IMG/VR virus record: IMGVR_UViG_3300035454_000441
DNA from: a virus
Reading direction: 5' to 3' (one strand)
Length of the DNA: 64,000 bases
In this document: positions 2,485 to 62,775 of the stretch, piece by piece
Numbering within the stretch: position 1 is the first letter of the stretch
How the letters are laid out: every line of letters starts with the position of its first letter
Made by a program: the position numbers and the translations under genes
The notes under the pieces: generated by a model
The model's input: only the letters and a program-made list of their open reading frames with translations
The model's database searches: none
What the model was told of the DNA's origin: nothing

Positions 2485-2511
2485 GAAAAAGCGGGGGATT
2501 TCTCCCCCGCT
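2485..2511 (-). terminator. Rho-independent terminator downstream of phoH (stem AGCGGGGGA/TCCCCCGCT, loop TTTC, U-run on the minus strand)
   Basis: Perfect 9-bp GC-rich hairpin followed by AAAAA on the plus strand (UUUUU on the minus strand). Confidence 0.65.
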
Positions 2512-4406: not shown

Positions 4407-4775
4407 TTAAGCCTCCAAATCATCGGGGTGAATGTTAAAAACCTTGGGAACCAATACCTTCAAAAGTTTTCTTACTTCTGAAAGTTTTTCTTCAAGAGCA
4501 ATAATCCTTGCTTGTTCATCGGTGATACCAAGAGCATACTTGTTGTTAGCTGCCTCATATGCATCATCAGTGACATACGAAAGTTCACCGAAACCACTAA
4601 GACTGTAACCAATCAACTGGGCAAACTGAATGCGGTCTTCCTGTGGAAAATCAACAACAGCCAAATCGTTCAAGTCGATGTTTCCGTGGTCCAAAAGATA
4701 CTGAACCAGCTTGTTCCCCTTGAAGCGAATCGTCCCAACGTCCGTGAGATAGAGGGGCTGAATTGGTTGCATCAC
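4407..4775 (-). CDS. Hypothetical protein (122 aa)
   Basis: ORF track. Confidence 0.45.
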   Translation of the reverse strand: MMQPIQPLYLTDVGTIRFKGNKLVQYLLDHGNIDLNDLAVVDFPQEDRIQFAQLIGYSLSGFGELSYVTDDAYEAANNKYALGITDEQARIIALEEKLSEVRKLLKVLVPKVFNIHPDDLEA

Positions 4776-5275
4776 TTCACTCCTGTACTGTTATAGGCAC
4801 CAGTGCCGCGTTCTGTTTCATTAAGTTCTTCGACCATCTGGAAATCAGCGTGAAATACCATGGTGAAAACACCTTGGGCAATCCTCTCGCCTGGCTCAAA
4901 GAATACTGGCTTATGTGAGAAGTTATACACGATAACACCCACCTCACCACGATAGCCACTATCAACAGTGCCGGGACTATTAGCGACGATGAAACCCTTC
5001 TTTAGGGCAGAACCCGACCGGGTACGAACTTGCATCTCCCAACCAGTGGGCACAGCCACTTTGATGCCCGTGGGAATAACAGCGACACCACCCGCCGCAA
5101 TAATCCACTTGTCATAACCAGCAAGTTTCATATCAGCGGGCAATTCGGCTGCCCTCAAGTCATAACCCGAGTCACCCGGCATAGCAAGTTCAAGAGGATT
5201 CCCAACATAGTTGTCAAGATAAACAATCTTAACGGGAAGTCTGTTTGGATACATTATATCTCCTTGGGTGGACAA
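4772..5275 (-). CDS. dut: dUTPase (dUTP/dCTP pyrophosphatase family)
   Basis: Motifs SGYDL and GTVDSGYRGEVGVIVYN. Confidence 0.75.
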   Translation of the reverse strand: MSTQGDIMYPNRLPVKIVYLDNYVGNPLELAMPGDSGYDLRAAELPADMKLAGYDKWIIAAGGVAVIPTGIKVAVPTGWEMQVRTRSGSALKKGFIVANSPGTVDSGYRGEVGVIVYNFSHKPVFFEPGERIAQGVFTMVFHADFQMVEELNETERGTGAYNSTGVK

Positions 5276-5616
5276 ACAATCCTCAGAATGGCAGAGAGTT
5301 GTTCTGGTTTAAATGGTTTTTGGAGCCAAGCAGAAGCACCACACGTTTTCGCTTGTTCTTTGCCAACTGTTGTTAACATCAGAATTGGTGTGAATCTATA
5401 ACCAGGTGTTTTTCTTAGTTCCTGGCAGAGAGTACAACCATCCATATTCGGCATGTTTAAATCAGTAATAATGAGGTCAAACTTGTGTTCTTTGGCAAGA
5501 CGTAGCGCCATGACACCATCACTTGCTTCCATGACTTTATAGCGCATCTCTGTTAGAGTCATATTTATAACGCTTCTAACTGTAGCAGAATCATCAACAA
5601 CTAAAACCAATTTCAT
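5254..5616 (-). CDS. Stand-alone CheY-like response-regulator receiver domain
   Basis: VLVVDDS, phospho-acceptor ITDLNMP, T/K pair ...AWLQKPF; 120 aa. Confidence 0.65.
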   Translation of the reverse strand: MKLVLVVDDSATVRSVINMTLTEMRYKVMEASDGVMALRLAKEHKFDLIITDLNMPNMDGCTLCQELRKTPGYRFTPILMLTTVGKEQAKTCGASAWLQKPFKPEQLSAILRIVCPPKEI

Positions 5617-6929
5617 TTCTTTACTCGTTTGAATGGAATGTTGTCGATGGAGTCAGCTTCGTCTTTATCAAACCTACGACCAAGAAAGCGCGGAAGATAG
5701 AGAGACCATTTAGCATCATTCGTCTTGGCTTTAATTCTCTCGTTGTACGCGACTTCAACGATTGACCCTTTCCACTCAGAGAAAGGAATGTCTCGGTCTT
5801 TATCAGAGAGTCCCGAACCAACAGAGACTTCAACTAAACCATCAGAAGAGACACACTCAAGGGAACCGATTTTGCCGGCATACTTACCAGTACCCTCAAG
5901 ATAACCAACCACTTGGAGATCGCAGGTGATGACGCCCTTGTACTTGATTTGCGTCTTAGACCGCTTACCTTCCCAGACGTTTTTCTTGTCCTTGAGGATA
6001 GTGCCCTCTTCGCCACCTTCATACAACTCGGTGAAGTGCTTGTAGGCTTCTCGCTCGTTGTTTACAATCTTCGTGTTAACGATAGAGAAATTATAACGTT
6101 TGTTGGAGCATTTGTCAACCAACAATCTTAGACGATCCTCATAGGGTGTGGCGCAATAACCCGCGTTCCAGTCGGCAATCGGAATGATATCGAAGATGAT
6201 GAAGTGAACCCGTTTAGCGACTTCATAGGGCAGAGTGCCGTGAATGGCTTTGTTGATTAGACCATTTCCCTTCTTACGGTCCATCAGCTTACCATCGCCT
6301 TCAACGACTACCAGTTCCCCATCCAACACATAGTCAGTACCAAAGTCATCAGCAAGACCAGCGTTAAACATATCGTGAAGGTCAAACGGTCGTCCATTCG
6401 AGGAGTGGAGTACAAACGCCCCGTTAATCGGGATTGCCTGACACCTCGACCCATCAACCTTGGTCTGACTGTATGCGGGGAATGTGATATTCTTAATACT
6501 CTTTTCGTCATAAGCAGTCGCCTTCATAACAGGAAACTCGGGAATGAGGTTGGGCCAAATCTCATTGACAGTAGACTCGGCCACACCACACTTCGGATCC
6601 TTAGCAATGATACGCTTGATAAGTTCACCTGTATCTTCACTTGCTATATTGAGGATGGTGTTCAAGTAATTAATTGCGGCAGTACCAGTGACTTGCCGAG
6701 TGGACAAAGCACCCAACATATTCATGGCATCATAATCTGTTAGAGTTGATACCGGATTATACAGATACTTCGGTATCTTTTTGATGTAGAAGTTGGTGAA
6801 CGGATCCAGTGCCAGCTTGAAGAACAGTTTGAGTTCCTCGTTCATACCATATCGACCGAGAATAAGTTTCTTCTCATTACGGCTGGCAGTAGCGGCAAGT
6901 TCATTCAGAATGTCAAGGTTTGTTTTCAT
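5613..6929 (-). CDS. ATP-dependent DNA ligase (T4 gp30-like); start trimmed to MKTNLDILNEL
   Basis: KxDG motif SQTKVDGSRC; N-terminus aligns with T4 ligase MILKILNEIA. Confidence 0.85.
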   Translation of the reverse strand: MKTNLDILNELAATASRNEKKLILGRYGMNEELKLFFKLALDPFTNFYIKKIPKYLYNPVSTLTDYDAMNMLGALSTRQVTGTAAINYLNTILNIASEDTGELIKRIIAKDPKCGVAESTVNEIWPNLIPEFPVMKATAYDEKSIKNITFPAYSQTKVDGSRCQAIPINGAFVLHSSNGRPFDLHDMFNAGLADDFGTDYVLDGELVVVEGDGKLMDRKKGNGLINKAIHGTLPYEVAKRVHFIIFDIIPIADWNAGYCATPYEDRLRLLVDKCSNKRYNFSIVNTKIVNNEREAYKHFTELYEGGEEGTILKDKKNVWEGKRSKTQIKYKGVITCDLQVVGYLEGTGKYAGKIGSLECVSSDGLVEVSVGSGLSDKDRDIPFSEWKGSIVEVAYNERIKAKTNDAKWSLYLPRFLGRRFDKDEADSIDNIPFKRVKK

Positions 6930-7377
6930 ACCAAACAGGCCTTTCACGATTTTTCCAAGTAGCGATATGCCGCTTGGCACCATTATAATAGTTGCGATAG
7001 GATTGAACAGCGTCTTGTGTCTTGTATTCGTCGGGCATTGCAAGGGCGAACGGAGTTAACCCACTGTCTGAAATGCGTGGCAACGGTAGATTGGCCGCGA
7101 CCACAAACGACTTGTGAACTTTACCGTACCTGTAATTATACTCTGTTTGTAACTCACTTGTCAAGTCACGAAGATAAAGCCAGTTAGATAGGGAAGCACG
7201 ACACCATTTGGCGCAGGGGTGATTTTGGTGAGTCACCCGATATCCTTCGTTGATGCCGGATAGGCGAACGGTGGTAGACAGAAGTTGCGCGTACTCCGTA
7301 ATCATCTTGACCACATGCTTATCAAGATGGGCTTGAGCGCACAACGTTTTGTCCTCGTCAAGGAGAAAGATGTTCAA
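6913..7377 (-). CDS. Hypothetical protein (154 aa)
   Basis: ORF track. Confidence 0.5.
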   Translation of the reverse strand: MNIFLLDEDKTLCAQAHLDKHVVKMITEYAQLLSTTVRLSGINEGYRVTHQNHPCAKWCRASLSNWLYLRDLTSELQTEYNYRYGKVHKSFVVAANLPLPRISDSGLTPFALAMPDEYKTQDAVQSYRNYYNGAKRHIATWKNRERPVWYENKP

Positions 7378-10072: not shown

Positions 10073-10306
10073 TTACTCCACGGGTGTAGTGGGAGTAACC
10101 TGCGGAATTGCCTGACCACGAATCTTACCAATGAGATCCGCGACACGCACATAAGGACCGGCTGCCAGCGCATCAAGCGCCAGGTTGACTTCATCAACAG
10201 TCAGAACAAGGGTGATTAGCTTTGGCTCAACGACTTCCTGAGTATTCTCTTCTTTTCCTTCTGTCATCTTCTTACCTTTCATGGTTACAACGTTATTTTT
10301 CTTCAT
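10073..10306 (-). CDS. Small hypothetical protein (77 aa), immediately downstream of the radical-SAM gene
   Basis: ORF track; 14-nt overlap with the upstream gene. Confidence 0.4.
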   Translation of the reverse strand: MKKNNVVTMKGKKMTEGKEENTQEVVEPKLITLVLTVDEVNLALDALAAGPYVRVADLIGKIRGQAIPQVTPTTPVE

Positions 10307-11354
10307 CTGTTTTGATCCATTTCAGTTCTGCTGAGGATGTGGTTGTTATGTGTGAATCTCGAAAACCCGGCGGATACGTCTGTACTGCATACATCATAAC
10401 TTGATTGTCCATCCACGGTGGTCTGATGTTATCACTTTGTTTTGGGAATGGTGTTTCAATCGGTTGTAGTCTCATTATCTTTTGAACCAGAGACGGGGAT
10501 TGTTCAAAACACACACGATTGCAATGGTCCTTACAACACTTGGGTGTACCAAATCGCCAATCACGGAAACCAGTCTCCCAGATTTGCCCCATGCTTTCCT
10601 TTAGGAGATTGCCTTGAACCGGCGCATCCGTCCAAGAAACCATAGACAGACAAGGAATAACATCGCCGTTGCAAAGAACACCCAGAGAAGACATTCCCGC
10701 GCCGCAGGCACCGCCGTTAAAGTTGTCAGCAACAATAACATCTTTGTATCCCTTCATGGCACTATTAATCTTATCACACAACGTCTTGGTTGCATACTCG
10801 GATTCATAGATGGCGTTAGAGTTTTTGTCTTTGTACATGGTCAACTGAATCTGCCAAAGCAACCCCCTCTGCTGAACAACGTCAAAGATGGTTTCAAACA
10901 TCCATAGATTTGTTTTGTTGAAGTTGGTGATGATGGTCGGGCGATACTTGGTATCCTTGAAGTACTTCGTATACAGTTCACACTCTCGTTCGGTGTTAAT
11001 AGAGACGCCGATACCATCATAAAGGTCAAGAATGGCACCCCACTCGGATTCACCATAGGGCATAGAACCATCGGTCTTAGGCAAAGACTGGGGATTAACC
11101 AAAATCTTCGACTTGATACCTTTACATTTGAAGATATCGGTAATTTCGTAGTGTGCTTTCCAAGGTACAAGCATAGGATCACCACCAGAAATATTCACCT
11201 CTTTGGGTGGATACTTAGCAATCGCTTGTGCAATCTCAGCATACTTTTCGGGATCACGCGACACTCTTATTCCATGTTCCTTGGAACCACAATAGTCACA
11301 GTTGTTGGTGCATCGGTCGGTAATCTCCCAGATTACTTCATTCAGTCTAATCAT
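10293..11354 (-). CDS. Radical SAM enzyme with a C-terminal SPASM/twitch-like Cys cluster
   Basis: CTNNCDYCGS (Cx3Cx2C), GGDPML, C-terminal CGAG...CNGDVIPC...CCKDHCNRVC. Confidence 0.7.
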   Translation of the reverse strand: MIRLNEVIWEITDRCTNNCDYCGSKEHGIRVSRDPEKYAEIAQAIAKYPPKEVNISGGDPMLVPWKAHYEITDIFKCKGIKSKILVNPQSLPKTDGSMPYGESEWGAILDLYDGIGVSINTERECELYTKYFKDTKYRPTIITNFNKTNLWMFETIFDVVQQRGLLWQIQLTMYKDKNSNAIYESEYATKTLCDKINSAMKGYKDVIVADNFNGGACGAGMSSLGVLCNGDVIPCLSMVSWTDAPVQGNLLKESMGQIWETGFRDWRFGTPKCCKDHCNRVCFEQSPSLVQKIMRLQPIETPFPKQSDNIRPPWMDNQVMMYAVQTYPPGFRDSHITTTSSAELKWIKTDEEK

Positions 11355-16088: not shown

Positions 16089-16121
16089 AGAGTCTCCTTG
16101 GTTAGCGTCGATTACAGATAC

Positions 16122-16150
16122 ATCTTACACCAACCAAGAAGTTGTGTCAA
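16122..16150 (-). promoter_or_regulatory. Early promoter, cassette copy c (TTGACA-N17-TAAGAT + GTATCTGTAAT, inverted repeat CTTGGTTGG/CTAACCAAGG)
   Basis: tgtcaa 16145-16150 / atctta 16122-16127. Confidence 0.6.
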
Positions 16151-16153
16151 CAC

Positions 16154-16501
16154 TTATTTTTGTTCGGGACGTGTTTTCATCATTTTTTCTGCGATTGTCC
16201 AAGCTAACTTACAACGGTCTTCGTTGTTGCCCGCTCCAGCATAGTCTTTGTAGCAAGAGAGAATGCCTTGGAGGGCGCCTAGGGCGAACTGGTCCCTGAG
16301 GCGGGTTTCATACTGCTCTTGATTCAACTCATGGTTCTTCCGATTGCGTTCGGCTTCCTCTTCCGCCAGCACCATCAGCTTGTCAACCATTTCGCCCAAG
16401 AGACGCCTGTTCTGCTCCTCAAGGCGCTTGGCATGGGCTTCATTCAAACGATTAATCTCTTCAATGTATCTGTCAAGGTCAGTCACGGGGATCCTCCTCA
16501 C
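16154..16501 (-). CDS. Coiled-coil hypothetical protein (115 aa)
   Basis: ORF track. Confidence 0.4.
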   Translation of the reverse strand: MRRIPVTDLDRYIEEINRLNEAHAKRLEEQNRRLLGEMVDKLMVLAEEEAERNRKNHELNQEQYETRLRDQFALGALQGILSCYKDYAGAGNNEDRCKLAWTIAEKMMKTRPEQK

Positions 16502-24307: not shown

Positions 24308-25014
24308 TAGATGACGCCCGGAGTAATGATACTCATAACTTCGGCAAGAGTACCCGTGGCATTCTGTCCGAACGCAACATATGCATAAGAACTGATGAAA
24401 GCCATTGCACTAGCATTAGCCGAGACCTCACCGCTTCCGGTAGTCTCAAACGTAGCAGTCAACGTGGCGATATCCGCAACAAGAGCCTCGTGGAGTGGTG
24501 TAAAGTTCTCTAGAAGATAACCAACGTCCGGACCTTCACCAATTTCCGGCTGATTGGCAATCAACGCGGCAAACTCCGCCTCATAGCTTGAGTATATAGC
24601 CACTTCGCTGGCTTGATAGTCGGCATCGAAAGTTTTTGTACCCAGAAACATATAGGTACTTTGTTCAGCAACTGGCGGCAGACCATCTAGATTGTTAACC
24701 TCATTCTGAACATTAGTGGCGGATGACAGAAACATCAACTTGGTTTTATAAGCATCATTTGCCAACCAAGTATTGTTATAATGGTCAAGATATACTTCTT
24801 TTAACAATTCAAGGGCAGCCAGAACCTCAGCCTTCTCAACGGAGATATCAACAGGCGTCTCAATGGGTTCTGGATCACCAATCATCTCATAAACGTAAAT
24901 CGTTTCATAAGTGGTATTAGCAACAGTCTTTAACGCATCAATCGCGGTAAAGATAGCTGTATACGGATTGGAGACTGGATTACCAGAGGCATCTATTTTA
25001 TCAGAGTAAGACAT
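24307..25014 (-). CDS. Hypothetical (possibly virion-associated) protein (235 aa)
   Basis: ORF track; adjacent to the PAAR gene. Confidence 0.5.
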   Translation of the reverse strand: MSYSDKIDASGNPVSNPYTAIFTAIDALKTVANTTYETIYVYEMIGDPEPIETPVDISVEKAEVLAALELLKEVYLDHYNNTWLANDAYKTKLMFLSSATNVQNEVNNLDGLPPVAEQSTYMFLGTKTFDADYQASEVAIYSSYEAEFAALIANQPEIGEGPDVGYLLENFTPLHEALVADIATLTATFETTGSGEVSANASAMAFISSYAYVAFGQNATGTLAEVMSIITPGVI

Positions 25015-25295
25015 GGAGACTCCTAAAAGGGTAACCCGTTTTTTTCTGTTTCCAAGACAAAACGGGTAAAATCTCAGTCGCGGTTAAGCGGCAAGGGCAA
25101 AGTCATACTCGCCTTTTATTGCTTTTGTCTGATATACGGCCATGACATTCCGGACTGTCCATCTTCGTACTTGTTACCCAGTCGAAACCTTGGCACCCCC
25201 ATCAACAGCATACTAGCAGAAGCCTCTAATCTCGCCCCAGTGGGCATAACACATGGCCTCAGTGCCCCGATGTGTCCGGGATGATAGTATGCTCT

Positions 25296-25340
25296 TGGTG
25301 GAGGTGGCGGGATCGAACCCGCGTCCTAAGCACCTTTCGG
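25296..25340 (-). other. tRNA 3'-half-like element (T-arm GCGGG-TTCGATC-CCCGC, acceptor 3' strand, CCA) with no matching 5' half
   Basis: Minus strand reads ...gacgcgggttcgatcccgccacctccacca. Confidence 0.45.
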
Positions 25341-25376
25341 TTGACTTCATACAGTCATATTGCTATTTAGTTATTA

Positions 25377-25697
25377 CTAGAAACGTATTTCGTGATCAAC
25401 AAGTGGTCCAAGATACTTGTTAATATCAGGATAAGTGCGAATAGTTTTCCACTCACACCACCTCGGTTTATGATATCCTCGTTCCGCGTGTTCACTAGTA
25501 TCAGAAAGATACTCAAACAGGGCGGCGACCATAAGAATCATAAACGGATGGGTCTTTCTATTCACATTATGATGTTTATTAAACTGTGAAAGATACGCTC
25601 TTCCAGTATCACAATGAGCCACAGTTGTGCAGGACTTCACAACCTTTATGACTTTTTTCAAGTCCGAGTGTGCTTTACAGTTGTCATAGAAACTCAT
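25377..25697 (-). CDS. Hypothetical protein (106 aa)
   Basis: ORF track. Confidence 0.4.
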   Translation of the reverse strand: MSFYDNCKAHSDLKKVIKVVKSCTTVAHCDTGRAYLSQFNKHHNVNRKTHPFMILMVAALFEYLSDTSEHAERGYHKPRWCEWKTIRTYPDINKYLGPLVDHEIRF

Positions 25698-27050: not shown

Positions 27051-27085
27051 TGAGTCTCTCCTTGGTTGGCGTCGATTACAGATAC

Positions 27086-27114
27086 ATCTTACACCAACCA
27101 AGGAGACTTGTCAA
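27086..27114 (-). promoter_or_regulatory. Early promoter, cassette copy e (TTGACA-N17-TAAGAT + GTATCTGTAAT; inverted repeat TCCTTGGTTGG/CCAACCAAGGA)
   Basis: tgtcaa 27109-27114 / atctta 27086-27091. Confidence 0.6.
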
Positions 27115-27124
27115 CAACTATTTT

Positions 27125-28549
27125 TCACAAAATGGGTTTATTTGCGTTCTCCCGAATCTTCTCAAAGTTAGTCAAGGCAACAAACGGCTCATACAGTTTC
27201 TTCGTCATAGTGTAGACCAAGTTCAGGATAATCTTGTCTTCCCAATTCTGGTCATCCAGACGAACGGTTTTTGCCTTGCCTTCCTCGTCCTCCACGACAG
27301 TGAGGCGACCACGTTTGCTTTCTTTGCCCGGTGCTTCCTTGAAAACATCAATCCATTTACCATTGACAAGCAGGGCGCAACACTTCATGGCGAATCCGTA
27401 GGTGTCGCGGTTAACGTGTTGGAGCAGGGCACCACCCATCCCGAATGCTACGTTGTCAGCACTGAAACCTGCCCACTTGAGAGTAGCTAGGATTTCGTTG
27501 ATGCTGGCTTTGTTGATGCCGTCTCCTTGAATAACGCGAACATAAGGAGGAAGCACTTTGTAACCCTTGCTGTTCCGAGTGGTACCAAACTTCTCTGCAA
27601 GGATTTCAACACAACGGCGTACGGTCGGAGCGGGGTCCCCCGAGTCCGGACGAATAACCAGAGTACCACCAACTGCGCCGAGGGCTTCAACATCTGCCTT
27701 CAACTCGGTACCCCAGAGTTCACAAGCCTTGAAGATATCGTAGCTGTCCGAAACAACAGCCACAAGCTTGCCAGGACCGCCGTATTGTTTCAGCATATTG
27801 CGGTATGCTTCAACTTCGTTGTCTTTACCCCAACTGGTGATGGTGCTATGTTCAGCCGCAGGAATACTGAACCCTGCCATCTCTGCACCGTAGTAGTGAT
27901 TGGCATACTGAACACCCTCAACAGTGTCCGAGCCGAGAAAGTTTACAAGGTGAGCCGCACCGCCGATACCAGCAGTTTCACCCGAAGAGCAACCACGACC
28001 ACCGAAGTCATGGAGTTTGAATGCGACTTGCTCTTGAACGTCACTGGTCCGCTCAAGGAAGTCTTTGATGACTTTCTTGCAGTCATAACTTACAGTGGCG
28101 ACCGAAGACGGGTACCAGATGGCGCGAAGTAGAGCCGTTTCGAGGAAGTTCACGATCCAAAAGCACACAGGATCAGTACAACATATCGTAAGTAAGCAAT
28201 TACGATTTTTAATAACAGTTCCTTCAGGTAAAGCCTTGATAGTGACAGGCATATATCCTTTATACTCGGTTAGTATATACTCAAATCCTTGTTTATTGAA
28301 AGGAACCCCATGTGCTTTACAGAACAGTTCAGCCTCTTCAATATCAGCTTGAGTAATCGGGGTGAGTAGATAGTCCTTGATGAACATCTGTAATCCAAAG
28401 AACACAAGATGATCTCCTCCTCTCGCTTCAATATACGATTGCATCCCCTCGGCTCCCGGAGGATATTGTCCTTGATGTTCAGTGTTATTGATACCGATTG
28501 AATGCGAGAATTTGTATGAATCGGTGGATAGTAGGATATTTCTTTTCAT
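27125..28549 (-). CDS. nadV: Nicotinamide phosphoribosyltransferase (NAMPT/NadV)
   Basis: 474 aa; overall NAMPT pattern (..GGGLLQ..DTVFG..); typical phage NAD+ salvage gene. Confidence 0.8.
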   Translation of the reverse strand: MKRNILLSTDSYKFSHSIGINNTEHQGQYPPGAEGMQSYIEARGGDHLVFFGLQMFIKDYLLTPITQADIEEAELFCKAHGVPFNKQGFEYILTEYKGYMPVTIKALPEGTVIKNRNCLLTICCTDPVCFWIVNFLETALLRAIWYPSSVATVSYDCKKVIKDFLERTSDVQEQVAFKLHDFGGRGCSSGETAGIGGAAHLVNFLGSDTVEGVQYANHYYGAEMAGFSIPAAEHSTITSWGKDNEVEAYRNMLKQYGGPGKLVAVVSDSYDIFKACELWGTELKADVEALGAVGGTLVIRPDSGDPAPTVRRCVEILAEKFGTTRNSKGYKVLPPYVRVIQGDGINKASINEILATLKWAGFSADNVAFGMGGALLQHVNRDTYGFAMKCCALLVNGKWIDVFKEAPGKESKRGRLTVVEDEEGKAKTVRLDDQNWEDKIILNLVYTMTKKLYEPFVALTNFEKIRENANKPIL

Positions 28550-43235: not shown

Positions 43236-43266
43236 TCTCTTCTCTCTTTCTCTTGATTACAGATAC

Positions 43267-43295
43267 ATCCTACACCAACCAAGGAGAGAAGTCAA
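43267..43295 (-). promoter_or_regulatory. Early promoter, cassette copy h (TTGACT-N17-TAGGAT)
   Basis: agtcaa 43290-43295 / atccta 43267-43272. Confidence 0.6.
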
Positions 43296-43317
43296 CAGAA
43301 AAATGAGCCAAGGACAA

Positions 43318-56133: not shown

Positions 56134-56208
56134 TGGTACCCCCTAGTGGAATTGAACCACTTTCTTCGCTTTGTAAGAGCGACATAATGCCCATTATACG
56201 AAGGGGGC
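56134..56208 (-). tRNA. tRNA-Val (anticodon UAC)
   Basis: Acceptor gccccct/agggggt, anticodon stem tcgct/agcga, loop CTTACAA, T-loop TTCAATT, CCA. Confidence 0.65.
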
Positions 56209-56214
56209 TTAAAA

Positions 56215-56292
56215 TGGTCAGGCGGGTGGGAGTCGAACCCACATTGTCCGGGTCACAGCCGAACCGATTTATTCCTTTAATCTTACCACCTG
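56215..56292 (-). tRNA. tRNA-His (anticodon GUG)
   Basis: Acceptor caggtgg/ccgcctg, anticodon loop CTGTGAC, T-arm GTGGG-TTCGACT-CCCAC, CCA. Confidence 0.6.
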
Positions 56293-56452
56293 ATGAAACG
56301 GTAACCGTAGCTTATTTCCAGGTCACTACTGACAAGGTCAAGCGAACACACCCAACAGAGGATGGGCCCTACCTCGTTGCTGTGGTCATCTAGTACACTG
56401 GGGCTATGCTGGAAAGTATTCCCCAATCTCGTAAGGTATCACCACACACACG

Positions 56453-56965
56453 TTACCAAATTCCGTATTCTACAAGCAAGTCATAGGCATTCATATTCTG
56501 AGCCTTAATCTGGAGAAACTCCATGATTGTAGGCTGAGTTGGTCTCTTCTTGAGGTACATCTTAGCCTCAGAACAGGTCATGTCTGCCTTTGCTGAGTTA
56601 CACTCGGAACACGCGGTAGCAGTGTTTGTCCAAGTGTTTCCACCACCCTTTGACTTTGGAAGAACATGGTCAATTGTTGGCTTCTCAACATACTTGCCAC
56701 AGTACTGACAAATATATCCGTCACGAATGAAGACGTTACGCTTGTTCCACTTGACAGCACGACCATAGAACTTGCGAACTGCCTTGATTAGCTGAATGAC
56801 CAATGGCTTGAAATACTTCTCATTCAACTTCTCGCCTGTTTCCTTGAGCGCAACAGCGGAGCCGTTAGCTATCTTAATCATAGCCTTCTTAACCGTTGTA
56901 AAACCCATGAAGGTCATATCATAGTTGAGTACAAGTACATTCTTCTTTGTCTTCTGCTTTGCCAT
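56453..56965 (-). CDS. HNH homing endonuclease
   Basis: HVLPKSKGGGNTWTNTATACSECNSAK. Confidence 0.75.
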   Translation of the reverse strand: MAKQKTKKNVLVLNYDMTFMGFTTVKKAMIKIANGSAVALKETGEKLNEKYFKPLVIQLIKAVRKFYGRAVKWNKRNVFIRDGYICQYCGKYVEKPTIDHVLPKSKGGGNTWTNTATACSECNSAKADMTCSEAKMYLKKRPTQPTIMEFLQIKAQNMNAYDLLVEYGIW

Positions 56966-57012
56966 AAGTCACCATAGTTTAGAATACAATTGAATATAGA
57001 CTATAAAATATA

Positions 57013-57699
57013 CTACTTCAACCTTCTGCCTTTTCGCCATCCATCTGGAATTGTTTCCCCAATCTTTAACTTTTTGTTATCGATTTCGTTTGTAATCCAA
57101 AATGAACCATATTGCGAATTGAGTTTACCCGAGTGTTTGCCCATAGCAGATTCACTCATTTTCTTTTTTGTTTCCTCTGTGTGTTTTTTACCCAAAAAGC
57201 TTTTGCGATTAACAAGGACTTCTTTATTGTTGTTCCAATACTCTTTCATAGCAAGAAGACCTTTTAATCTCCCGACATTTTTCCCATCAATGATACGTTT
57301 TCGTGTCGCTTCGTCTAATTCTAAAAATCGTTCTTGATTGCTAAACGGTGAAACGAGTTTTTGGTAGTTATCATCATATCTTTTATTTTTATCTGAACAA
57401 CAACCCGTGTTAACATGATCCCAACCACCTTCCCCACCCACTTTGAGATTGTAACATTCACCTGATTCAAGTAAATCAACAGTGACTAGTTCCTTCTCTT
57501 TAGTGAATGCTTCCTCAGGTGTACCAAAGATGAATAGAACTTCTTTAGTGAAATGTTCTATGCCATACTTTTCTATGGCTCTTTTCAGTAACTTACCCGA
57601 ACCCACGTAATCATCATACGGATTAGTTGTTTTATGAACACCGATATAATAACGTTCATTAACTTTGTTTGTTGTTTTATATACGGTATAAACGTACAT
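57013..57699 (-). CDS. GIY-YIG homing endonuclease (Seg-like), paralog of 59582..60295
   Basis: YVYTVYKTTNKVNERYYIGVHKT... Confidence 0.8.
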   Translation of the reverse strand: MYVYTVYKTTNKVNERYYIGVHKTTNPYDDYVGSGKLLKRAIEKYGIEHFTKEVLFIFGTPEEAFTKEKELVTVDLLESGECYNLKVGGEGGWDHVNTGCCSDKNKRYDDNYQKLVSPFSNQERFLELDEATRKRIIDGKNVGRLKGLLAMKEYWNNNKEVLVNRKSFLGKKHTEETKKKMSESAMGKHSGKLNSQYGSFWITNEIDNKKLKIGETIPDGWRKGRRLK

Positions 57700-57770
57700 A
57701 CTTTAGAGAGTCCTTTCGCCCACGGAACTTCACTTCTATTTAGTGAAGTTCAACTCTCTAAAGTATGTCA
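57700..57770 (-). promoter_or_regulatory. Nested inverted repeats immediately 5' of the seg-like start codon (possible translational control hairpin)
   Basis: ctttagagagt...actctctaaag enclosing gaacttcac...gtgaagttc. Confidence 0.4.
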
Positions 57771-57774
57771 AAAG

Positions 57775-57861
57775 CGGAAGAGGGGTGGATTTGAACCCCC
57801 ATCGGTTTTGAGACCTACACTGACTTTCGAGGTCAGCCGCTTACCGTTAGCGTACTCTTCC
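57775..57861 (-). tRNA. tRNA-Ser (anticodon CGA), CCA not encoded
   Basis: Acceptor ggaagag/ctcttcc, anticodon stem ctgac/gtcag, loop CTCGAAA, long variable arm. Confidence 0.55.
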
Positions 57862-58113
57862 GTTGTTGGTGCCCTATGCACCAAGCGTAATTTTGTTCGT
57901 ATTCGTCAAAAAAGTTATATGGGTTCACATCACTTTCAGATAGTATACCCTCTTTGAACTCTTTTGTCAAGTGCAAAGCCATTGCTTTGCCTTTTGGCAC
58001 AATTGGACTTCTCATAATCACTTTCTCTAAATGAATTGACGATTGAATATAGCCGAGGGAGTGTTAGTTCCAGAGTGGTCGGCAATAGCCACGTTTCAAC
58101 CGTCAAATTAAAA

Positions 58114-58206
58114 TGGAGGAGCAGGACGGATTCGAACCCTCAGTCCGCTTCTTACACGGACACTTGTTTTCAAGACAAGGCCCCGACCACTGGGGTCAAC
58201 TGCTCC
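58114..58206 (-). tRNA. tRNA-Ser (anticodon UGA)
   Basis: Acceptor ggagcag/ctgctcc, anticodon stem cttgt/acaag, loop CTTGAAA, T-loop TTCGAAT, CCA. Confidence 0.6.
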
Positions 58207-58211
58207 TTAAA

Positions 58212-58652
58212 TTACCAAAGCTTATATTCTAGTTCCACACCCGCACCATCGTATCCCCTTTCATCTTCACTGAACGCGCAAGAGTGGTGTGTGTACTTCA
58301 AGTTTGTTCTGAACCTGGAGTCCTCTGATTGATAGAGATGATACCTCAATCCAAGATTACTTGTTGTGTGAGTATCGTTTCCATCATCGTCACACATAGG
58401 ACTAATTTTTTTCGTGTAGTCCAAGCCAGCGTAAACAGAAGCCCCGTTGTTAAACTTACCAGAACAACCAAACATCATTGATAAAAGAACCAAGAGAAGT
58501 GGTATAGTGACTGCTAACACAATTCCCTTTAAAATACCTTTACCCGTGTCTGTCTTGAAATACTCTTTCAGGTTTACGTCTCGCAAAGACCAAAGCATCC
58601 AGACGATTAGAATGGCCAATGCTGTTGCTACAAACTCAATACCACTAAACAT
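58212..58652 (-). CDS. Membrane/secreted protein (start at MFSGIEFV; RBS AGGAG) located inside the tRNA array
   Basis: N-terminal TM/signal segment; C-terminal ...GAGVELEYKLW. Confidence 0.45.
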   Translation of the reverse strand: MFSGIEFVATALAILIVWMLWSLRDVNLKEYFKTDTGKGILKGIVLAVTIPLLLVLLSMMFGCSGKFNNGASVYAGLDYTKKISPMCDDDGNDTHTTSNLGLRYHLYQSEDSRFRTNLKYTHHSCAFSEDERGYDGAGVELEYKLW

Positions 58653-58691
58653 AGTTGTTACTCCTTTTGGTGTTAGTGATATATTTAGTTT

Positions 58692-58766
58692 TGGTACTCC
58701 CAAGTGGAGTCGAGCCACTATCTTTGCCGTGTCGAGGCAATGTAATTTCCCTTATACGATGGGAGT
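58692..58766 (-). tRNA. tRNA with anticodon loop TCGACAC (anticodon GAC, Val-like; atypical C33)
   Basis: Acceptor actccca/tgggagt, T-arm AGTGG-CTCGACT-CCACT, CCA. Confidence 0.45.
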
Positions 58767-58847
58767 AAAGACGACCGCACATTCTTCTGAATGATTATTC
58801 CTTGTGGGATTTTAGACTTACGCCGAGTTGGTTGTGGTCATCAAAAC

Positions 58848-58940
58848 TGGAGGAAGGCTAGATACTCGAAATCTATACGGAGTCTTAGTCCGTACTCACC
58901 GCTTTCCAAGCGGGACCTGCTCCTCGCTGGTTAACCTTCC
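58848..58940 (-). tRNA. tRNA-Ser (anticodon GGA)
   Basis: Acceptor ggaaggt/gccttcc, anticodon loop TTGGAAA, T-arm TAGAT-TTCGAGT-ATCTA, long variable arm, CCA. Confidence 0.55.
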
Positions 58941-58945
58941 GAAAC

Positions 58946-59020
58946 TGGAGCCCACACCGAGAATCGAACTCGGAACTTCTCCTTACCAAAGAGATGTTTT
59001 ACCACTAGAACTATGCGGGC
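58946..59020 (-). tRNA. tRNA-Thr (anticodon GGU)
   Basis: Acceptor gcccgca/tgtgggc, D-loop AGTGGTA, anticodon loop TTGGTAA, T-arm CCGAG-TTCGATT-CTCGG, CCA. Confidence 0.6.
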
Positions 59021-59062
59021 ATATCTGAGTACTCTAAAAGGACCACTGTTCTGCCACTGAAC

Positions 59063-59200
59063 TACCTGCACACTATTGATGCAGAATGGGAGTCGAACCC
59101 ATGACGCGCGGTTTGGGATTAAATTGCTGTAGGTACTCATTGAAATTATACTGGATGCTTTTCTTCGTGCCTCTACCAGTTGGGCTACCAGTGCATAGTT
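59063..59200 (-). ncRNA. Degenerate tRNA-like element (T-arm ATGGG-TTCGACT-CCCAT; D-arm-like GTTC-AGTGGCA-GAAC lies 3' of it; no CCA)
   Basis: No consistent cloverleaf could be drawn. Confidence 0.3.
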
Positions 59201-59300
59201 GGCGCACTGGGTAGGATTCGAACCTACACTTGCCGGCTTTCACAGAGCGAGTTTTTGTTGCTGAATGCATCCATTTTTGTTTTTACTGTTTGCGTTGAGA
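59200..59300 (-). ncRNA. Degenerate tRNA-like element (T-arm GTAGG-TTCGAAT-CCTAC, acceptor 3' strand ccagtgc, CCA at 59200; 5' half unrecognisable)
   Basis: 3' module canonical; only a 5/7-pairing 5' strand found. Confidence 0.3.
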
Positions 59301-59387
59301 CCTTCTCTCAATAGGGCGGAGTCGAACCGTTCCTTGCCTGATTTTGGTGGCAAATTAAAATTGCTGTATGCAAACAAAAGTTGTAAT
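59300..59387 (-). ncRNA. Degenerate tRNA-like element (T-loop TTCGACT with a weak stem; no acceptor pairing, no CCA)
   Basis: ggcggagtcgaaccg on the plus strand. Confidence 0.25.
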
Positions 59388-59461
59388 TGGCAGGGGATAC
59401 AGGAGTCAAACCCGTACTTGTCGCTTCAAAGGCGCCTGTGCTATCGCTACACCAATCCCCA
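59388..59461 (-). tRNA. tRNA-Gln (anticodon UUG)
   Basis: Acceptor tggggat/atcccct (U1.U72 mismatch), anticodon loop CTTTGAA, T-loop TTTGACT, CCA. Confidence 0.5.
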
Positions 59462-59466
59462 TCAAA

Positions 59467-59550
59467 TGGCAGTCCGTGTGGGAGTCAAACCCACCAAGAA
59501 TTGTTTCAGAGACACTTCCGTACATCGGTACCCGGACAACAAATGGTAGC
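59467..59550 (-). ncRNA. tRNA-like element (T-arm GTGGG-TTTGACT-CCCAC, acggact-g-CCA) with an unresolved 5' half
   Basis: 3' module canonical; no complementary 5' acceptor strand found. Confidence 0.3.
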
Positions 59551-59581
59551 TAGTGTGAGTGCTGATCTCACCTAGTCATTC

Positions 59582-60295
59582 TTATGAGGAACGACCGTTC
59601 ACCGGAACCCTAGCCATATATCTTCCTTTAACCCATCCCTGTTCAAGATAGGTTTGTAAATCGTCTTTTTTTATAGTTTTGTTCTGTTGACTACTTGGGT
59701 TATGTATAAAACATTTTCCATACATGGGATTATTGGGACCCGAACGCTCAACTTCTTTTTGTGCTTTCTTCAAATGTTGTAATGTTTCTTCTGTGTGTTT
59801 TCTTCCCTTAAAAGGATTAGAAGTGTCTAGTGTTGGGCGTATTTCTTCATTCCATCGCTTTAAACCACTACGTTCATATGTCAATTTACCCACAACTGTT
59901 CTCCAAGACTCCCCGTAACGTTCTTTTAGAATTCTATCAGTCGTTTCTCTACCTCGTTTACACAATTCTTGATTTACAACAAATGGATTACCCAGTTTAT
60001 CGTTGATGTAGTCAAACCCACCTTCACCCCCACACTTCAAGTTGTAACACAATCCCTCTTCAAGTATGTCATCTGTTACTAGTTGTGCTTCCATGGCAAA
60101 GGCGTCTTCTGGTGTATCAAATATGAATAGTATATCTTTGGTAAAGTTTTCTATTCCATGTTTGTTGATTGCTAGTTTAAGTAACTTACCAGAACCCATA
60201 TAATTGTCATATGGATTAGTTGTCTTATGAACACCAATATAAAAGCGATTGTTTAACTTATTCGTAGTCTTATAGACTGTGTAAACTGCGGACAT
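59582..60295 (-). CDS. GIY-YIG homing endonuclease (Seg-like), paralog of 57013..57699
   Basis: SAVYTVYKTTNKLNNRFYIGVHKT... Confidence 0.8.
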   Translation of the reverse strand: MSAVYTVYKTTNKLNNRFYIGVHKTTNPYDNYMGSGKLLKLAINKHGIENFTKDILFIFDTPEDAFAMEAQLVTDDILEEGLCYNLKCGGEGGFDYINDKLGNPFVVNQELCKRGRETTDRILKERYGESWRTVVGKLTYERSGLKRWNEEIRPTLDTSNPFKGRKHTEETLQHLKKAQKEVERSGPNNPMYGKCFIHNPSSQQNKTIKKDDLQTYLEQGWVKGRYMARVPVNGRSS

Positions 60296-60360
60296 ACTCC
60301 AGAGTACCTTTCTAATGGAACTTCACTTTTATTTAGTGAAGTTCGATACTCTGGAGTATG
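60296..60360 (-). promoter_or_regulatory. Nested inverted repeats 5' of the seg-like start codon (same architecture as 57700-57770)
   Basis: ctccagagta...tactctggag enclosing gaacttcac...gtgaagttc. Confidence 0.4.
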
Positions 60361-60367
60361 TCAAAGG

Positions 60368-60434
60368 AGCGGGTGTGGGTAACGATCCCACTAATTCGGG
60401 GTTATGAACCCCGACGGCCTCCTAGGCTACCCGC
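60368..60434 (-). ncRNA. Short (67 nt) tRNA-Met(CAU)-like element. Anticodon stem has three G-C pairs (CGGGG/CCCCG), D-arm truncated, T-loop atypical (ATCGTTA), no CCA
   Basis: gcgggta...cgggg-TTCATAA-ccccg...gtggg-atcgtta-cccac-acccgc. Confidence 0.4.
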
Positions 60435-60547
60435 ATCATTTAAAAAGAGAAGTCTTGACTGGGTGGATTGCCTCCCCACCTCTAGTTTGGTCTGTTGTTA
60501 ATAACGGTCGACCGGCATCTAGTGTTTTGTTTCGTCAAGACTTCAAT

Positions 60548-60625
60548 TGGTAGGAACGGAGGGAGTCGAACCCTCAGTATACTTGGCCCTCAACCAAGCC
60601 CGTATGCCAATTCCGGCACGTTCCC
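60548..60625 (-). tRNA. tRNA with anticodon GAG (Leu codons) but a short variable arm (class-I shape)
   Basis: Acceptor gggaacg/cgttcct, D-arm tgcc-ggaatt-ggca, anticodon loop TTGAGGG, T-arm GAGGG-TTCGACT-CCCTC, CCA. Confidence 0.45.
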
Positions 60626-60629
60626 ATAA

Positions 60630-60705
60630 TGGCACCCCGTGAGAGATTCGAACTCCCATCTAAGAGGGTAGAAGCCTCTTGCCTTATCCAGTAGACTAAC
60701 GGGGC
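60630..60705 (-). tRNA. tRNA-Arg (anticodon UCU)
   Basis: Acceptor gccccgt/acggggt, anticodon stem agagg/cctct, loop CTTCTAC, T-loop TTCGAAT, CCA. Confidence 0.6.
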
Positions 60706-60706
60706 A

Positions 60707-61615
60707 TTAAACTTTCCACTTGTTAGTATATTTCATGCCGTAGTTGTTGACGCCTTTCGGTATAACGATGCCAGGTTTCAAGCGCAATTTGTTACCTTTG
60801 AAAGGACTGTAATCTACGTGATGGTGCCAGCGTCCATATCTCCAAACGAGTCTAGCAACATCGGGGTGCATATCTACTAACATTTGTGACTTGTTGATTG
60901 TACCTGTGGGATTAAGCTGTTTCTCTCTCCACTTCTCTTTGTCCAACTCTCCTTCAACGTGGTAGAACTCTTGTGTATTACCACCTTTGACAGTTTGGGT
61001 AGCACACTTACCTTGAAGGAATGCGTTAAATTGAATGGTACAGTCACCATCTTTTAAAACACGAAGACAAATATCGGTATCTTCGTTGTAACGTCCACGC
61101 CAACGATGCTTACACTCATTATGAATGAGCAGGGTGGAATAGATACGTGTATTAGCTACAAAAGCAGGATACTTGGTATTAGGTGCAATAAAGAACCGAT
61201 ACTGAAATCCCGAAATGGGTACGTTTTCATATCTGTCCACAAAGTCTTCGGCAGCCCTAAAGATTGCACCAGACTCAACCCTAACACGTTCATTCTTGTG
61301 AAGTCGATAGAAGTCTTGAATGTTGTCATCCATTACCCAGTGACGTTCAGCACCAAGAAGAATGGAATGGTCCCAACACCAGTTTCTAGCCCGACCCGGA
61401 CCATCGCCGTGATTACTGAAAGGCAGAACGAGAAGAGTTACATAGTCTCTGATACCAAAGTTGTCAAGCGCCTGATCATACAGTTCATAGTCTTGTGGTT
61501 CGACAGAAATGTAATGAGGTACTTTCATTCGCGAAAGGGACCGAGACGTAAACATTGACTCATGGCGACCCTTACTGATGATATAAACTGGGTATCTTGG
61601 ATTAGTCATCTTCAA
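60707..61615 (-). CDS. Hypothetical protein (302 aa; contains a DxD-like VMDDN)
   Basis: ORF track. Confidence 0.5.
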   Translation of the reverse strand: MKMTNPRYPVYIISKGRHESMFTSRSLSRMKVPHYISVEPQDYELYDQALDNFGIRDYVTLLVLPFSNHGDGPGRARNWCWDHSILLGAERHWVMDDNIQDFYRLHKNERVRVESGAIFRAAEDFVDRYENVPISGFQYRFFIAPNTKYPAFVANTRIYSTLLIHNECKHRWRGRYNEDTDICLRVLKDGDCTIQFNAFLQGKCATQTVKGGNTQEFYHVEGELDKEKWREKQLNPTGTINKSQMLVDMHPDVARLVWRYGRWHHHVDYSPFKGNKLRLKPGIVIPKGVNNYGMKYTNKWKV

Positions 61616-61949
61616 ACCACCTCTTCAAGCTATTCGCGTCTTTGTCTAGACCCGGATACCAGATTGTCTTGGTCTTTTCAGTCAACTTCTGGTCGACCAG
61701 TTTAGCGAACTCAAGATAGTCTTCTTTTGACCGGAAAGAAACGATGATCTTCTTAAAGCAGGGATTGTCTTCCTGCTCAAACTCTGGCATACCAACCCAG
61801 TGCTTTTTCCACGCTTCATCTTCCGTGTCTTGCACCTCAATGAAGTCTTCAAGAGTTGGCGGAAGATACTCAACGTCCTTCTTACCGAGGAAGTTCTCAT
61901 ACTCTGTAGACTCGGGCACAACAACAGCAGGGACATTCTTTTTAGTCAT
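61602..61949 (-). CDS. Hypothetical protein (115 aa)
   Basis: ORF track. Confidence 0.45.
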   Translation of the reverse strand: MTKKNVPAVVVPESTEYENFLGKKDVEYLPPTLEDFIEVQDTEDEAWKKHWVGMPEFEQEDNPCFKKIIVSFRSKEDYLEFAKLVDQKLTEKTKTIWYPGLDKDANSLKRWFEDD

Positions 61950-62233
61950 AGATAAATCACTTTCTTGTTGAATATGTAGATATCATATCCTACTTTTCTC
62001 ATAATGTCAATGAATGACTTTTAGAGTAAATCCTGTCATCGGTTCCACCCGTTCGTTCTTTTGCAGAGAACGTAGCCTAGACAGAGACTACCCGACAATC
62101 TTGGCTTGTCGGCATTCCAAGGATTCAACTAACATCAATCCTCAAAGCATTTTGATGTTTTTCGGGCGAAACATCTTAACCCTGTGTTTACGTCACAATC
62201 GACCACCTGCTGACCCGTGTGGTTGGGGGAAAC

Positions 62234-62307
62234 TGGAGCGGTATGAGAGAATCGAACTCTCGTTATCACGTTGGCAACGTGAAGTTTTACCATTAAACTA
62301 ATACCGC
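62234..62307 (-). tRNA. tRNA-Gly (anticodon GCC)
   Basis: Acceptor gcggtat/ataccgc, D-arm gttt-aatggtaa-aac, anticodon loop TTGCCAA, T-arm GAGAG-TTCGATT-CTCTC, CCA. Confidence 0.7.
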
Positions 62308-62308
62308 A

Positions 62309-62384
62309 TGGTGCCTTGTCTCGGAGTCGAACCAAGTTGTCTAGTGCTTCAAACTAGCGCATTGACCGCAATTGCTTACAAGGC
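62309..62384 (-). tRNA. tRNA-Phe (anticodon GAA)
   Basis: Acceptor gccttgt/acaaggc, anticodon stem ctagt/actag, loop TTGAAGC, CCA. Confidence 0.7.
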
Positions 62385-62526
62385 ATAAAAGATTATCTAG
62401 TCCCAACGGAGCCGCGCGGTACGTTGTTTGTAGTAGGTTGACTGAACGAGTCGAGTGGCCAAACCCAACATCTAGTGTCATTTAACTCACGCCGTCGGTC
62501 GTTGACTCCGTGGTGAGACCTATAGA

Positions 62527-62609
62527 CTAGACAAATTGGCACGGACGTGAGGAATCGAACCCCTTACAAATGGTTTTGGAGGCCATCTCAGTTCCCAAAC
62601 TGATTCAAG
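62527..62609 (-). tRNA. tRNA-Trp (anticodon CCA)-like, with about 8 extra nt between the acceptor and D stems
   Basis: Anticodon loop CTCCAAA, T-loop TTCGATT, acceptor acgggcg/cgtccgt, CCA. Confidence 0.45.
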
Positions 62610-62615
62610 TTACGC

Positions 62616-62694
62616 CCGTATTAAATGGTCAGGGAGACAGGATTCGAACCTGCGTGTTCCTCGCTCCAAACGAGACCGGACGCCCAGACTGCCG
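62616..62694 (-). tRNA. tRNA-Pro (anticodon UGG)
   Basis: Anticodon stem tctcg/cgagg, loop TTTGGAG; T-arm GCAGG-TTCGAAT-CCTGT; CCA. Confidence 0.55.
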
Positions 62695-62701
62695 GCACAC
62701 C

Positions 62702-62775
62702 CTGATGAAATTGGTTCCCACACCCGGTTACGATCCGAGGTCGGTCGGTTATCAGCCGACTGCTCTACCATTGAG
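62702..62775 (-). tRNA. tRNA-Ile (anticodon GAU), atypical T-loop ATCGTAA
   Basis: Acceptor tcccgca/tgtggga, D-arm gctc-aatggtaga-gc, anticodon stem gtcgg/ccgac, loop CTGATAA, CCA. Confidence 0.6.

Follow-up and report, generated by a model that had tools for sequence, protein, structure and literature searches.

What does a phage of apparently virulent type gain from a solitary CheY, encoded between its DNA ligase and its dUTPase? The question is raised by IMGVR_UViG_3300035454_000441, a viral record of IMG/VR analysed over a stretch of 64,000 nucleotides (nt; hereafter the window), on the minus strand of which a 120-codon, ATG-initiated open reading frame (ORF) encodes a stand-alone receiver protein. 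The region examined, about 69 kb, comprises the window and 4.7 kb of the contig L001, and the whole genome is larger. The gene encodes a receiver of a family linked to F7-type chemosensory clusters, with a conserved predicted active site and a strongly altered output face, for which a role as an early competitor or phosphate sink is tentatively proposed.

Identity and family of the receiver

The translation of the gene (MKLVLVVDDSATVRSVINMTLTEMRYKVMEASDGVMALRLAKEHKFDLIITDLNMPNMDGCTLCQELRKTPGYRFTPILMLTTVGKEQAKTCGASAWLQKPFKPEQLSAILRIVCPPKEI) matches the Pfam family Response_reg (PF00072) over residues 4–111 of 120, at profile positions 1–110 of 111, with E = 4.9e-27; the score of 94.7 bits, where the cut-off is 30.2 bits, is well beyond chance. 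Furthermore, 99 response-regulator families were matched in NCBIfam and several phage receiver families in PHROGs. The receiver fills the protein, and no output domain is fused to it between the ligase stop and the dUTPase start. All residues of the active site that a preliminary description, made from the nucleotide sequence, had recognized are present, namely the acidic pair D8/D9, the predicted phospho-acceptor D52 in the motif ITDLNMP (within LIITDLNMPNMDG), T82 in LMLTT (5371–5373) and K100 in QKPF. They are accompanied by P56 (D+4), G60 (D+8), P101 (K+1) and the aromatic W97 (K-3). An AlphaFold2 (AF2) model exhibits the (β/α)5 fold with five strands and five helices at a predicted local distance difference test score (pLDDT) of 93.5, and Foldseek aligned it with many solved receivers at template modelling (TM) scores of 0.84–0.90. 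The same description had taken the protein for a stand-alone receiver rather than a member of another flavodoxin-like family, an assignment borne out by the profile searches, in which the Pfam scores of PDE8A_N, FleQ and Spermine_synth lie far under their cut-offs. By these measures the protein is a true, canonical receiver with an intact active site, phosphorylation itself being predicted. The receiver DNA is 100% identical between two independent assemblies (JGI 3300035557 and Logan SRR36367033), and the identical protein occurs on three contigs, all copies found being identical.

A search covering 5.8 billion clustered proteins revealed a nearest non-identical homologue with 58% identity by BLASTP and 59% in the alignment. 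The best 119 homologues are receiver-only proteins of 116–165 amino acids (aa) with identities of 49–58% (BLASTP) or 50–59% (alignment), and the phospho-acceptor Asp, whose conservation had been a point at issue in the preliminary description, is invariant across them. A metagenomic homologue locus and the locus of Brumicola nitratireducens share the gene order STAS - CheY - CheA - CheW, and the CheA proteins at homologue loci contain Hpt, dimerisation, HATPase and CheW domains. The metagenomic locus is flanked by MCPs on both sides, and in the Brumicola locus another CheW follows, then a globin/PAS-type MCP, CheR, CheD and CheB, with a PAS-SpoIIE phosphatase upstream. In fact, 70 of 80 homologue loci in GTDB species genomes contain CheA, which lies no more than 1.5 kb downstream on the same strand in 64 of the 74 GTDB loci with enough downstream sequence. 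The top match in the PDB by sequence is CheY4 of Vibrio cholerae (E = 8e-25, as opposed to 1e-15 to 1e-16 for the E. coli and V. cholerae CheY3 structures), which is also a near-best match by fold (4hnr; TM 0.90, 45% identity in Foldseek). These comparisons place the receiver among the CheYs whose genes directly precede that of CheA in chemosensory clusters of the F7 type. The family is spread over many phyla at 44–55% identity, and no outstanding donor was identified in a scan of GTDB.

CheY4 is the CheY of V. cholerae chemotaxis cluster III (PMC3774744, PMC11940527). The F7 cluster type, which is also that of the Che1 array of Shewanella oneidensis, an array connected genetically with the CrsR/CrsA partner switch that governs RpoS (PMC9855816), has been linked to non-flagellar, stress or RpoS-related signalling (PMC3774744, PMC11940527, PMC9855816). 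Even when activated, CheY4 does not bind FliM and has been proposed as a possible phosphate sink (PMC3774744), and deletion or overexpression of F7 CheYs causes no clear phenotype (PMC11940527). A motor-type (flagellar) CheY was considered as a further identity and rejected, the NCBIfam CheY equivalog scoring 65.7 bits against a cut-off of 189.

The preliminary description had regarded single-domain receivers as unusual in lytic phages. They are indeed rare, any tblastn match being found in 158 of 50,697 GenBank phage records (all below 41% identity and mostly contaminated assemblies, prophages or hybrid kinases), but they are not without precedent, since stand-alone CheY-like genes have been annotated in the lytic Alteromonas phages V22 (gp30), A5 (gp11) and P24 (PMC7289586, PMC10579305). 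Like the window protein, these are stand-alone receivers of virulent tailed phages, annotated as signalling auxiliary metabolic genes with no known mechanism; they differ in that they are 147–149 aa long, share about 28–29% identity with the window protein, lie in a host-recognition/tail-fibre module and fall outside the CheY4/F7 subfamily. Scans of IMG/VR with the receiver alone or the ligase alone as query found no relatives, and an alignment-based scan found distant phage receivers. Two of these are likewise orphan single-domain receivers of large phages, encoded at 7995–8354 in L006 (IMGVR_UViG_3300026484_000295, 172 kb) and at 7986–8381 in L007 (IMGVR_UViG_3300015606_001334, 359 kb), with no Che partner within ±8 kb. 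In contrast to the window protein, to which they are 38–41% identical, both belong to the classical flagellar CheYs, carrying DWNMPNMDG and a Tyr at K-3; the L006 protein, whose locus has 29% G+C, matches Helicobacter pylori CheY1 at E = 1e-44. As the other phage CheYs belong to other subfamilies and are at most 41% identical to this one, phages have captured CheY genes repeatedly and independently. Chemotaxis and two-component genes have also been reported in phages of ammonia oxidisers (bioRxiv 10.64898/2026.05.02.722434). The cREC domains of jumbo phages are another instance of the receiver fold in large phages (Iyer et al. 2021, PMC7824862); they are divergent, never found with histidine-kinase signalling and linked to NAD+/ADP-ribose enzymes (PMC7824862). 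An identity as cREC was discarded, given that the window protein is canonical, its homologues are CheA-linked and its neighbours are a ligase and a dUTPase. No functional studies of phage CheYs were found in the literature, and the receiver described here is the first of the F7/CheY4 type that could be found in a phage.

Conserved active site and altered output face

The phage protein resembles CheY4 (4hnr/4h60) in its length of 120 aa, its single domain, the numbering of its D9/D52/N54/T82/K pocket and the Trp at K-3 (PMC3774744), as well as in the family motif DLNMPNMDG and in F75-x-P77. Equivalents of CheY4 are CheY2 of the Pseudomonas aeruginosa Che2 system and CheY1 of S. oneidensis Che1. 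Unlike CheY4, the phage protein is encoded by a virus, within a replication-gene operon and without adjacent STAS, CheA, CheW, MCP, CheR, CheD or CheB genes; it is also four residues shorter in the β4–α4 loop and α4 and replaces G25, E84, S85, G89, A92, G96 and V99.

How these changes are distributed was assessed in an alignment of the phage protein with the 119 homologues. All 19 invariant columns are kept, including D8, D9, D52, N54, P56, G60, W97, K100, P101 and F102, and identity to the consensus is 100% in the β1–α1, β3–α3 and β5–α5 loops and in β4. The β4–α4 loop and α4, on the other hand, show 23% consensus identity against a family mean of 75%, a value to which no other member falls, and β5 shows 25% against 89%. 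Nine columns conserved to at least 92% are substituted (A24M, G25R, I61C, E84V, S85G, G89A, A92C, G96A and V99Q), six of them within residues 84–99, and four residues are missing at the start of α4. AlphaFold models accordingly show an α4 of six residues (86–91) in the phage protein as opposed to ten (88–97) in the nearest bacterial homologue, P0002. The same pattern is seen against a consensus of the 12 nearest relatives, to which the loop of the conserved Lys is 100% identical, the β3 loop 75% and the N-terminal half of α1 73%, compared with only 33% for residues 83–99. In addition, none of the 120 sequences is more divergent than the phage protein. Its distance to non-sister sequences is 0.466 as opposed to 0.364 ± 0.019 for its sisters, a relative-rate comparison that shows its evolution to be accelerated.

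The α4–β5–α5 surface is the usual output face of receivers and is linked to the phosphorylation site via T, T+2 and K-3 (PMC12632262), and the β4–α4 loop and α4 are the parts of CheY4 that differ between the free and the sulfate-bound structures (PMC3774744). The combination of a fixed active site with a diverged α4–β5 region therefore points to purifying selection on the phosphorylation chemistry together with remodelling of the signalling face.

Insertion, expression and genomic setting

The closest ligase in the database, P0121, is 70% identical to that of the window and lies on a short contig, L013, where the ligase stop is coupled through ATGA straight to a dUTPase homologous to the one in the window. 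Compared with L013, the window phage carries 363 extra bases exactly at the ligase/dUTPase junction. The ligase of the window also has a C-terminal extension (...NIPFKRVKK, 5613–5640 on the minus strand) relative to its homologue in L013 (...NIA, 1370–1399). This extension arose at the insertion boundary, and it provides sequence upstream of the receiver start codon. More distant relatives on the contigs L014, L096 and L095, whose ligases share 54%, 52% and 48% identity with the window ligase, retain the gene order ligase ... PhoH - GH19 ... ClpP, and the stretch of the L095 contig reaches gp32; a Response_reg gene is absent from the contig stretches read in all three. Gene order thus indicates that the receiver gene is a lineage-specific horizontal insertion. 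At third codon positions its G+C content (GC3) amounts to 0.32, whereas the genome averages 0.48 (z = -2.2); of 103 genes only two have lower values (57013–57699 and 59582–60295), and both lie in the tRNA region.

The insert is fitted closely between its neighbours. Besides the ATGA by which the ligase stop overlaps the receiver start, correctly noted in the preliminary description, the TAA stop of the receiver overlaps the dUTPase ATG in TAATG (5252–5256), and an AAGGAG Shine-Dalgarno sequence for dUTPase (5260–5265) sits in the last codons of the receiver (PPKEI). Among 96 junctions in the genome 12 are ATGA and seven TAATG, so that both types are ordinary here and the coupling is real but not special.

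The bacterial partners of such receivers were not encountered in the region examined. Searches by tblastn with CheA, CheW, MCP, CheR, CheD, STAS and SpoIIE from two bacterial clusters recovered from the window and the additional 4.7 kb only the receiver itself, and no histidine kinase or Hpt protein was found in this DNA. Likewise, Pfam scans of 102 window ORFs, run in batches with the 25 best families listed for each, gave no HisKA, HATPase_c, Hpt, CheW or CheZ-type family among the matches listed; weak matches may have gone unlisted. Within the roughly 69 kb the receiver is thus encoded neither beside CheA nor in a che cluster.

Expression of the gene was considered from the promoters in its surroundings (Table 1). 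The pattern TTGACA-N17-TATAAT with at most one mismatch occurs ten times in the window, in each case on the coding strand, as opposed to 0.4 expected occurrences, and the -10 element is often TATAGT. These ten sites are probably early promoters of the phage. The only two perfect σ70 matches in the window both lie upstream of the receiver gene, one of them inside the ligase gene; this intragenic promoter is absent from the homologous site of L013, the relative that lacks the receiver. From this arrangement we infer that the receiver is expressed early by host RNA polymerase, together with genes of replication and nucleotide metabolism. A hairpin after PhoH is the probable end of the transcription unit.

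Table 1. Positions of the receiver gene, its key codons, neighbouring genes and predicted transcription signals in the window.
Feature	Position	Strand	Basis
Stand-alone CheY-like receiver gene, 120 aa	5254–5616	-	ORF, Pfam, AF2, Foldseek
D8-D9 codons, acidic metal-binding pair	5590–5595	-	Invariant in 120 aligned sequences
D52 codon, predicted phospho-acceptor	5461–5463	-	Invariant; aligns with VcCheY4 D52 (PMC3774744)
Remodelled β4–α4 loop/α4/β5, residues 83–99 (TVGKEQAKTCGASAWLQ)	5320–5370	-	Alignments, AF2 models
K100 codon, conserved Lys, followed by cis-Pro P101	5317–5319	-	Alignment
Overlap of ligase stop and receiver start, ATGA	5613–5616	-	Sequence
Shine-Dalgarno sequence and TAATG coupling receiver to dUTPase	5252–5265	-	Sequence
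T4-type ATP-dependent DNA ligase, upstream neighbour, 438 aa from the JGI-called ATG	5613–6929	-	
dUTPase, downstream neighbour	4772–5254	-	
Ten σ70-like promoters	Starts 6090, 8016, 22072, 23961, 32161, 35205, 41489, 44992, 57942, 61982	-	
Perfect TTGACA-N17-TATAAT promoter within the ligase gene, preceding the receiver start by 474 nt	6090–6118	-	
Perfect σ70-type promoter (N18), preceding the ligase start by about 200 nt and the receiver by about 1.5 kb	7135–7164	-	
Strong intrinsic-terminator-like hairpin, nine pairs (seven G-C) then T run, after PhoH	2490–2511	-	

The window has 45% G+C with nearly all ORFs on the minus strand, and contains 18 tRNA genes and a transfer-messenger RNA (tmRNA). 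Its Pfam functions include ligase, dUTPase, PhoH, Thy1, RNase H, DsbA, SegE-type endonucleases and ribonucleotide reductase as well as an NAD+ salvage set, RtcB and a CCA-adding enzyme, and the contig just past the window encodes ClpP, a gp33-like coactivator, gp59 and gp32. A megablast search with 4 kb around the receiver gene found no match among GenBank phages; the ligase is at most 40.5% identical to ligases of isolated phages, and gp32 at most 48% identical to theirs, the nearest being cyanophage gp32 (47–48%). Owing to the absence of a GenBank match and the distance of ligase and gp32, the phage is a new, deep-branching T4-like phage of virulent type.

One clue to the host may come from the tmRNA. 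It is of the permuted (two-piece) form, located at 25084–25356 on the minus strand (Rfam tmRNA_permuted, 104.6 bits against a gathering score of 47), and was called by ARAGORN at 24993–25387 with the predicted tag peptide GEYDFALAA. Such permuted forms are characteristic of alphaproteobacteria, of cyanobacteria and of certain betaproteobacteria. The 18 tRNA genes form a cluster interspersed with ORFs at 56134–63588 (minus strand). Among the ORFs between 25,377 and 63,992 are SegE GIY-YIG, NUMOD3 and HNH families, which were not mapped to individual ORFs; the NAD+ salvage set, consisting of a NAMPT/NAPRTase (27125–28549, minus strand), a NUDIX protein and a cytidylyltransferase-like NMNAT candidate; RtcB and the CCA-adding enzyme; a TET-associated glycosyltransferase, which suggests that the DNA is hypermodified; and an ORF resembling dual-specificity phosphatases (E = 1.4e-4). 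The early-region ORFs at 379–25014 encode, among others, two SPFH/Band_7 proteins, a PAAR-motif protein, a DUF7788/DUF2828 protein and a radical SAM/SPASM enzyme (10293–11354). Repeats are present as well: a 107-bp unit is found in perfect tandem (2.1 copies, 100% identical) at positions 1–222 of the window and at 15395–15609 of L001, a JGI contig, and an element of about 45–53 bp, which may be a shared regulatory or terminator element, recurs near gene ends at 16109–16161, 27073–27125 and 43255–43297 with copies 89–91% identical. Just beyond the left end of the window, at a distance of a few kb from the receiver gene, lies a phage gene for ClpP (L001 15953–16546), which is also present in L095 and L096. 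In E. coli, the receiver-domain adaptor RssB hands RpoS to ClpXP; that the phage ClpP and the receiver are linked is conceivable, as pure speculation.

Possible functions during infection

The explanation that is tentatively preferred is that the receiver would act as an early-expressed competitor of the host CheY, or a phosphate sink, for an F7-type CheA of the host. That a host phosphorelay might be titrated had already been suggested in the preliminary description, and the present data narrow this idea down to a non-flagellar CheA of the F7 type as the likely partner and to a receiver whose output face is altered. The explanation starts from what is established here about the gene: its identity and fold, its catalytic residues and family, its insertion and lack of a kinase nearby, its promoters and its pattern of divergence. 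In this scenario, a virulent T4-like phage would have captured a CheY from the family found in F7 clusters (V. cholerae cluster III, P. aeruginosa Che2, S. oneidensis Che1), and the captured gene would have been placed between ligase and dUTPase in an early, σ70-driven operon. The phage CheY would take phosphoryl groups from the host F7-type CheA or from acetyl phosphate, competing with the host CheY, and its rebuilt α4–β5 face would not pass on the normal output. Such a sink or decoy may silence or re-route a stress-associated, non-flagellar chemosensory pathway. Since the phosphorylation machinery and the N-terminal half of α1 are kept and the output face is rebuilt, this function appears the most likely of those considered. 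A further step, namely that the sink shuts down or re-routes a host chemosensory pathway feeding the general stress response through the RpoS partner switch, is rather doubtful.

Several points weigh against a phosphate sink. G25, invariant in the 119 homologues, is Arg in the phage protein and adjoins α1, the usual docking helix for kinases and Hpt domains. The β4–α4 loop and T+2 are also known to affect the kinetics of phosphotransfer and dephosphorylation (PMC12632262), and the remodelling, including E84V at T+2, could change donor specificity or kinetics instead of output. Because the loop, T+2 and G25R may all touch donor specificity or kinetics, the remodelling is not unambiguous evidence of a change in output. 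The codon fit of the receiver gene to the genome is no outlier (z = 0.35), which makes the compositional evidence for a foreign origin modest. About 69 kb of a larger genome were examined, and a kinase could be encoded elsewhere in it. We infer phosphorylation, the donor or partner CheA, the action as a sink and any gain for the phage; as the natural output of F7 CheYs is unknown (PMC11940527), that gain is speculative.

Other functions have been weighed against the same data. Phosphorylated phage CheY might bind the normal target of the host F7 CheY, thereby switching the pathway on or keeping it in one state, in which case the changes in α4 would only tune affinity or the lifetime of the phosphoryl group. 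The complete catalytic site, the retained family-specific W97 at K-3, an α5 that is 64% identical to the sister consensus and a substitution (E84V) at T+2, a known kinetic tuning position (PMC12632262), are consistent with such mimicry; it is nevertheless unlikely, given that the α4–β5 face is the least conserved part of the protein, that no bacterial member is so divergent there, and that six residues conserved to at least 92% are replaced on the output face and one helical turn is deleted. Alternatively, the rebuilt face could bind a new partner from phage or host, so that the phage would read the phospho-donor pool of the host (CheA~P or acetyl phosphate, in other words its energy or stress state) to steer its own programme. 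Accelerated change on one surface around a fixed active site is typical of neofunctionalisation, and the gene is tightly coupled into the phage operon. However, its neighbours are ordinary enzymes with no candidate partner among them, and no gene was inherited along with it, the closest relative lacking at the junction this gene only; a retargeted switch of this kind seems quite improbable.

It is very unlikely that the receiver, after the fashion of DtcB in Detocs, draws phosphoryl groups from a two-component-like abortive-infection system rather than from a chemosensory pathway. The published Detocs paper is said to report a phage-encoded DtcB homologue that blocks Detocs. DtcB is, like the phage protein, a single receiver domain, thought to act purely by absorbing phosphoryl groups, and phosphate buffering by a stand-alone receiver is its proposed role (bioRxiv 10.1101/2023.01.24.525353); it differs in being bacterial and encoded in a three-gene defence operon. 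Early expression would suit an anti-defence gene. In PADLOC-DB v2.0.0, however, in which the presence of Detocs models is unconfirmed, the receiver matched neither DtcB nor DtcC and other models were marginal only (E ≥ 4e-4), and its identity of 50–59% to CheA-linked CheYs is far above that to any defence-system receiver. Nor is there much to suggest that the gene is a horizontally acquired passenger that has no role in infection and is not yet lost, an explanation about as improbable as the foregoing one. Such a passenger could account for the occurrence in a single phage lineage among the relatives examined, for the lack of an orthologue above 59% identity in the 5.8 billion clustered proteins and for the low GC3, which has been likened to that of likely mobile endonuclease genes (families that were not mapped to ORFs). 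Yet the protein, diverged by about 41% from its nearest homologue, has an intact ORF and 19 of 19 invariant columns with its losses on one surface, and both junctions have been re-engineered for translational coupling, with the Shine-Dalgarno sequence of the next gene inside the 3' end.

That a phage has kept a catalytically intact CheY with a rebuilt output face suggests that the pathway to which such CheYs belong matters during infection. The phage CheY can be seen as a natural separation-of-function variant, in which the phospho-acceptor is retained and the output face altered, and its locus is tractable, since the insertion point is sharply defined, a near-isogenic relative lacks the gene and the early promoters are strong. 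If the proposed function as a phosphate sink is true, phages too would have an equivalent of the sink CheYs and buffer receivers known from bacteria. No output has yet been assigned to F7 systems such as V. cholerae cluster III, P. aeruginosa Che2 and S. oneidensis Che1 (PMC11940527). Should the sink moreover shut down or re-route a host pathway that feeds the general stress response, direct viral interference with a chemosensory phosphorelay of bacteria would be demonstrated for the first time, and the phage receiver would provide a natural tool to find the output of these Che2/cluster III systems.

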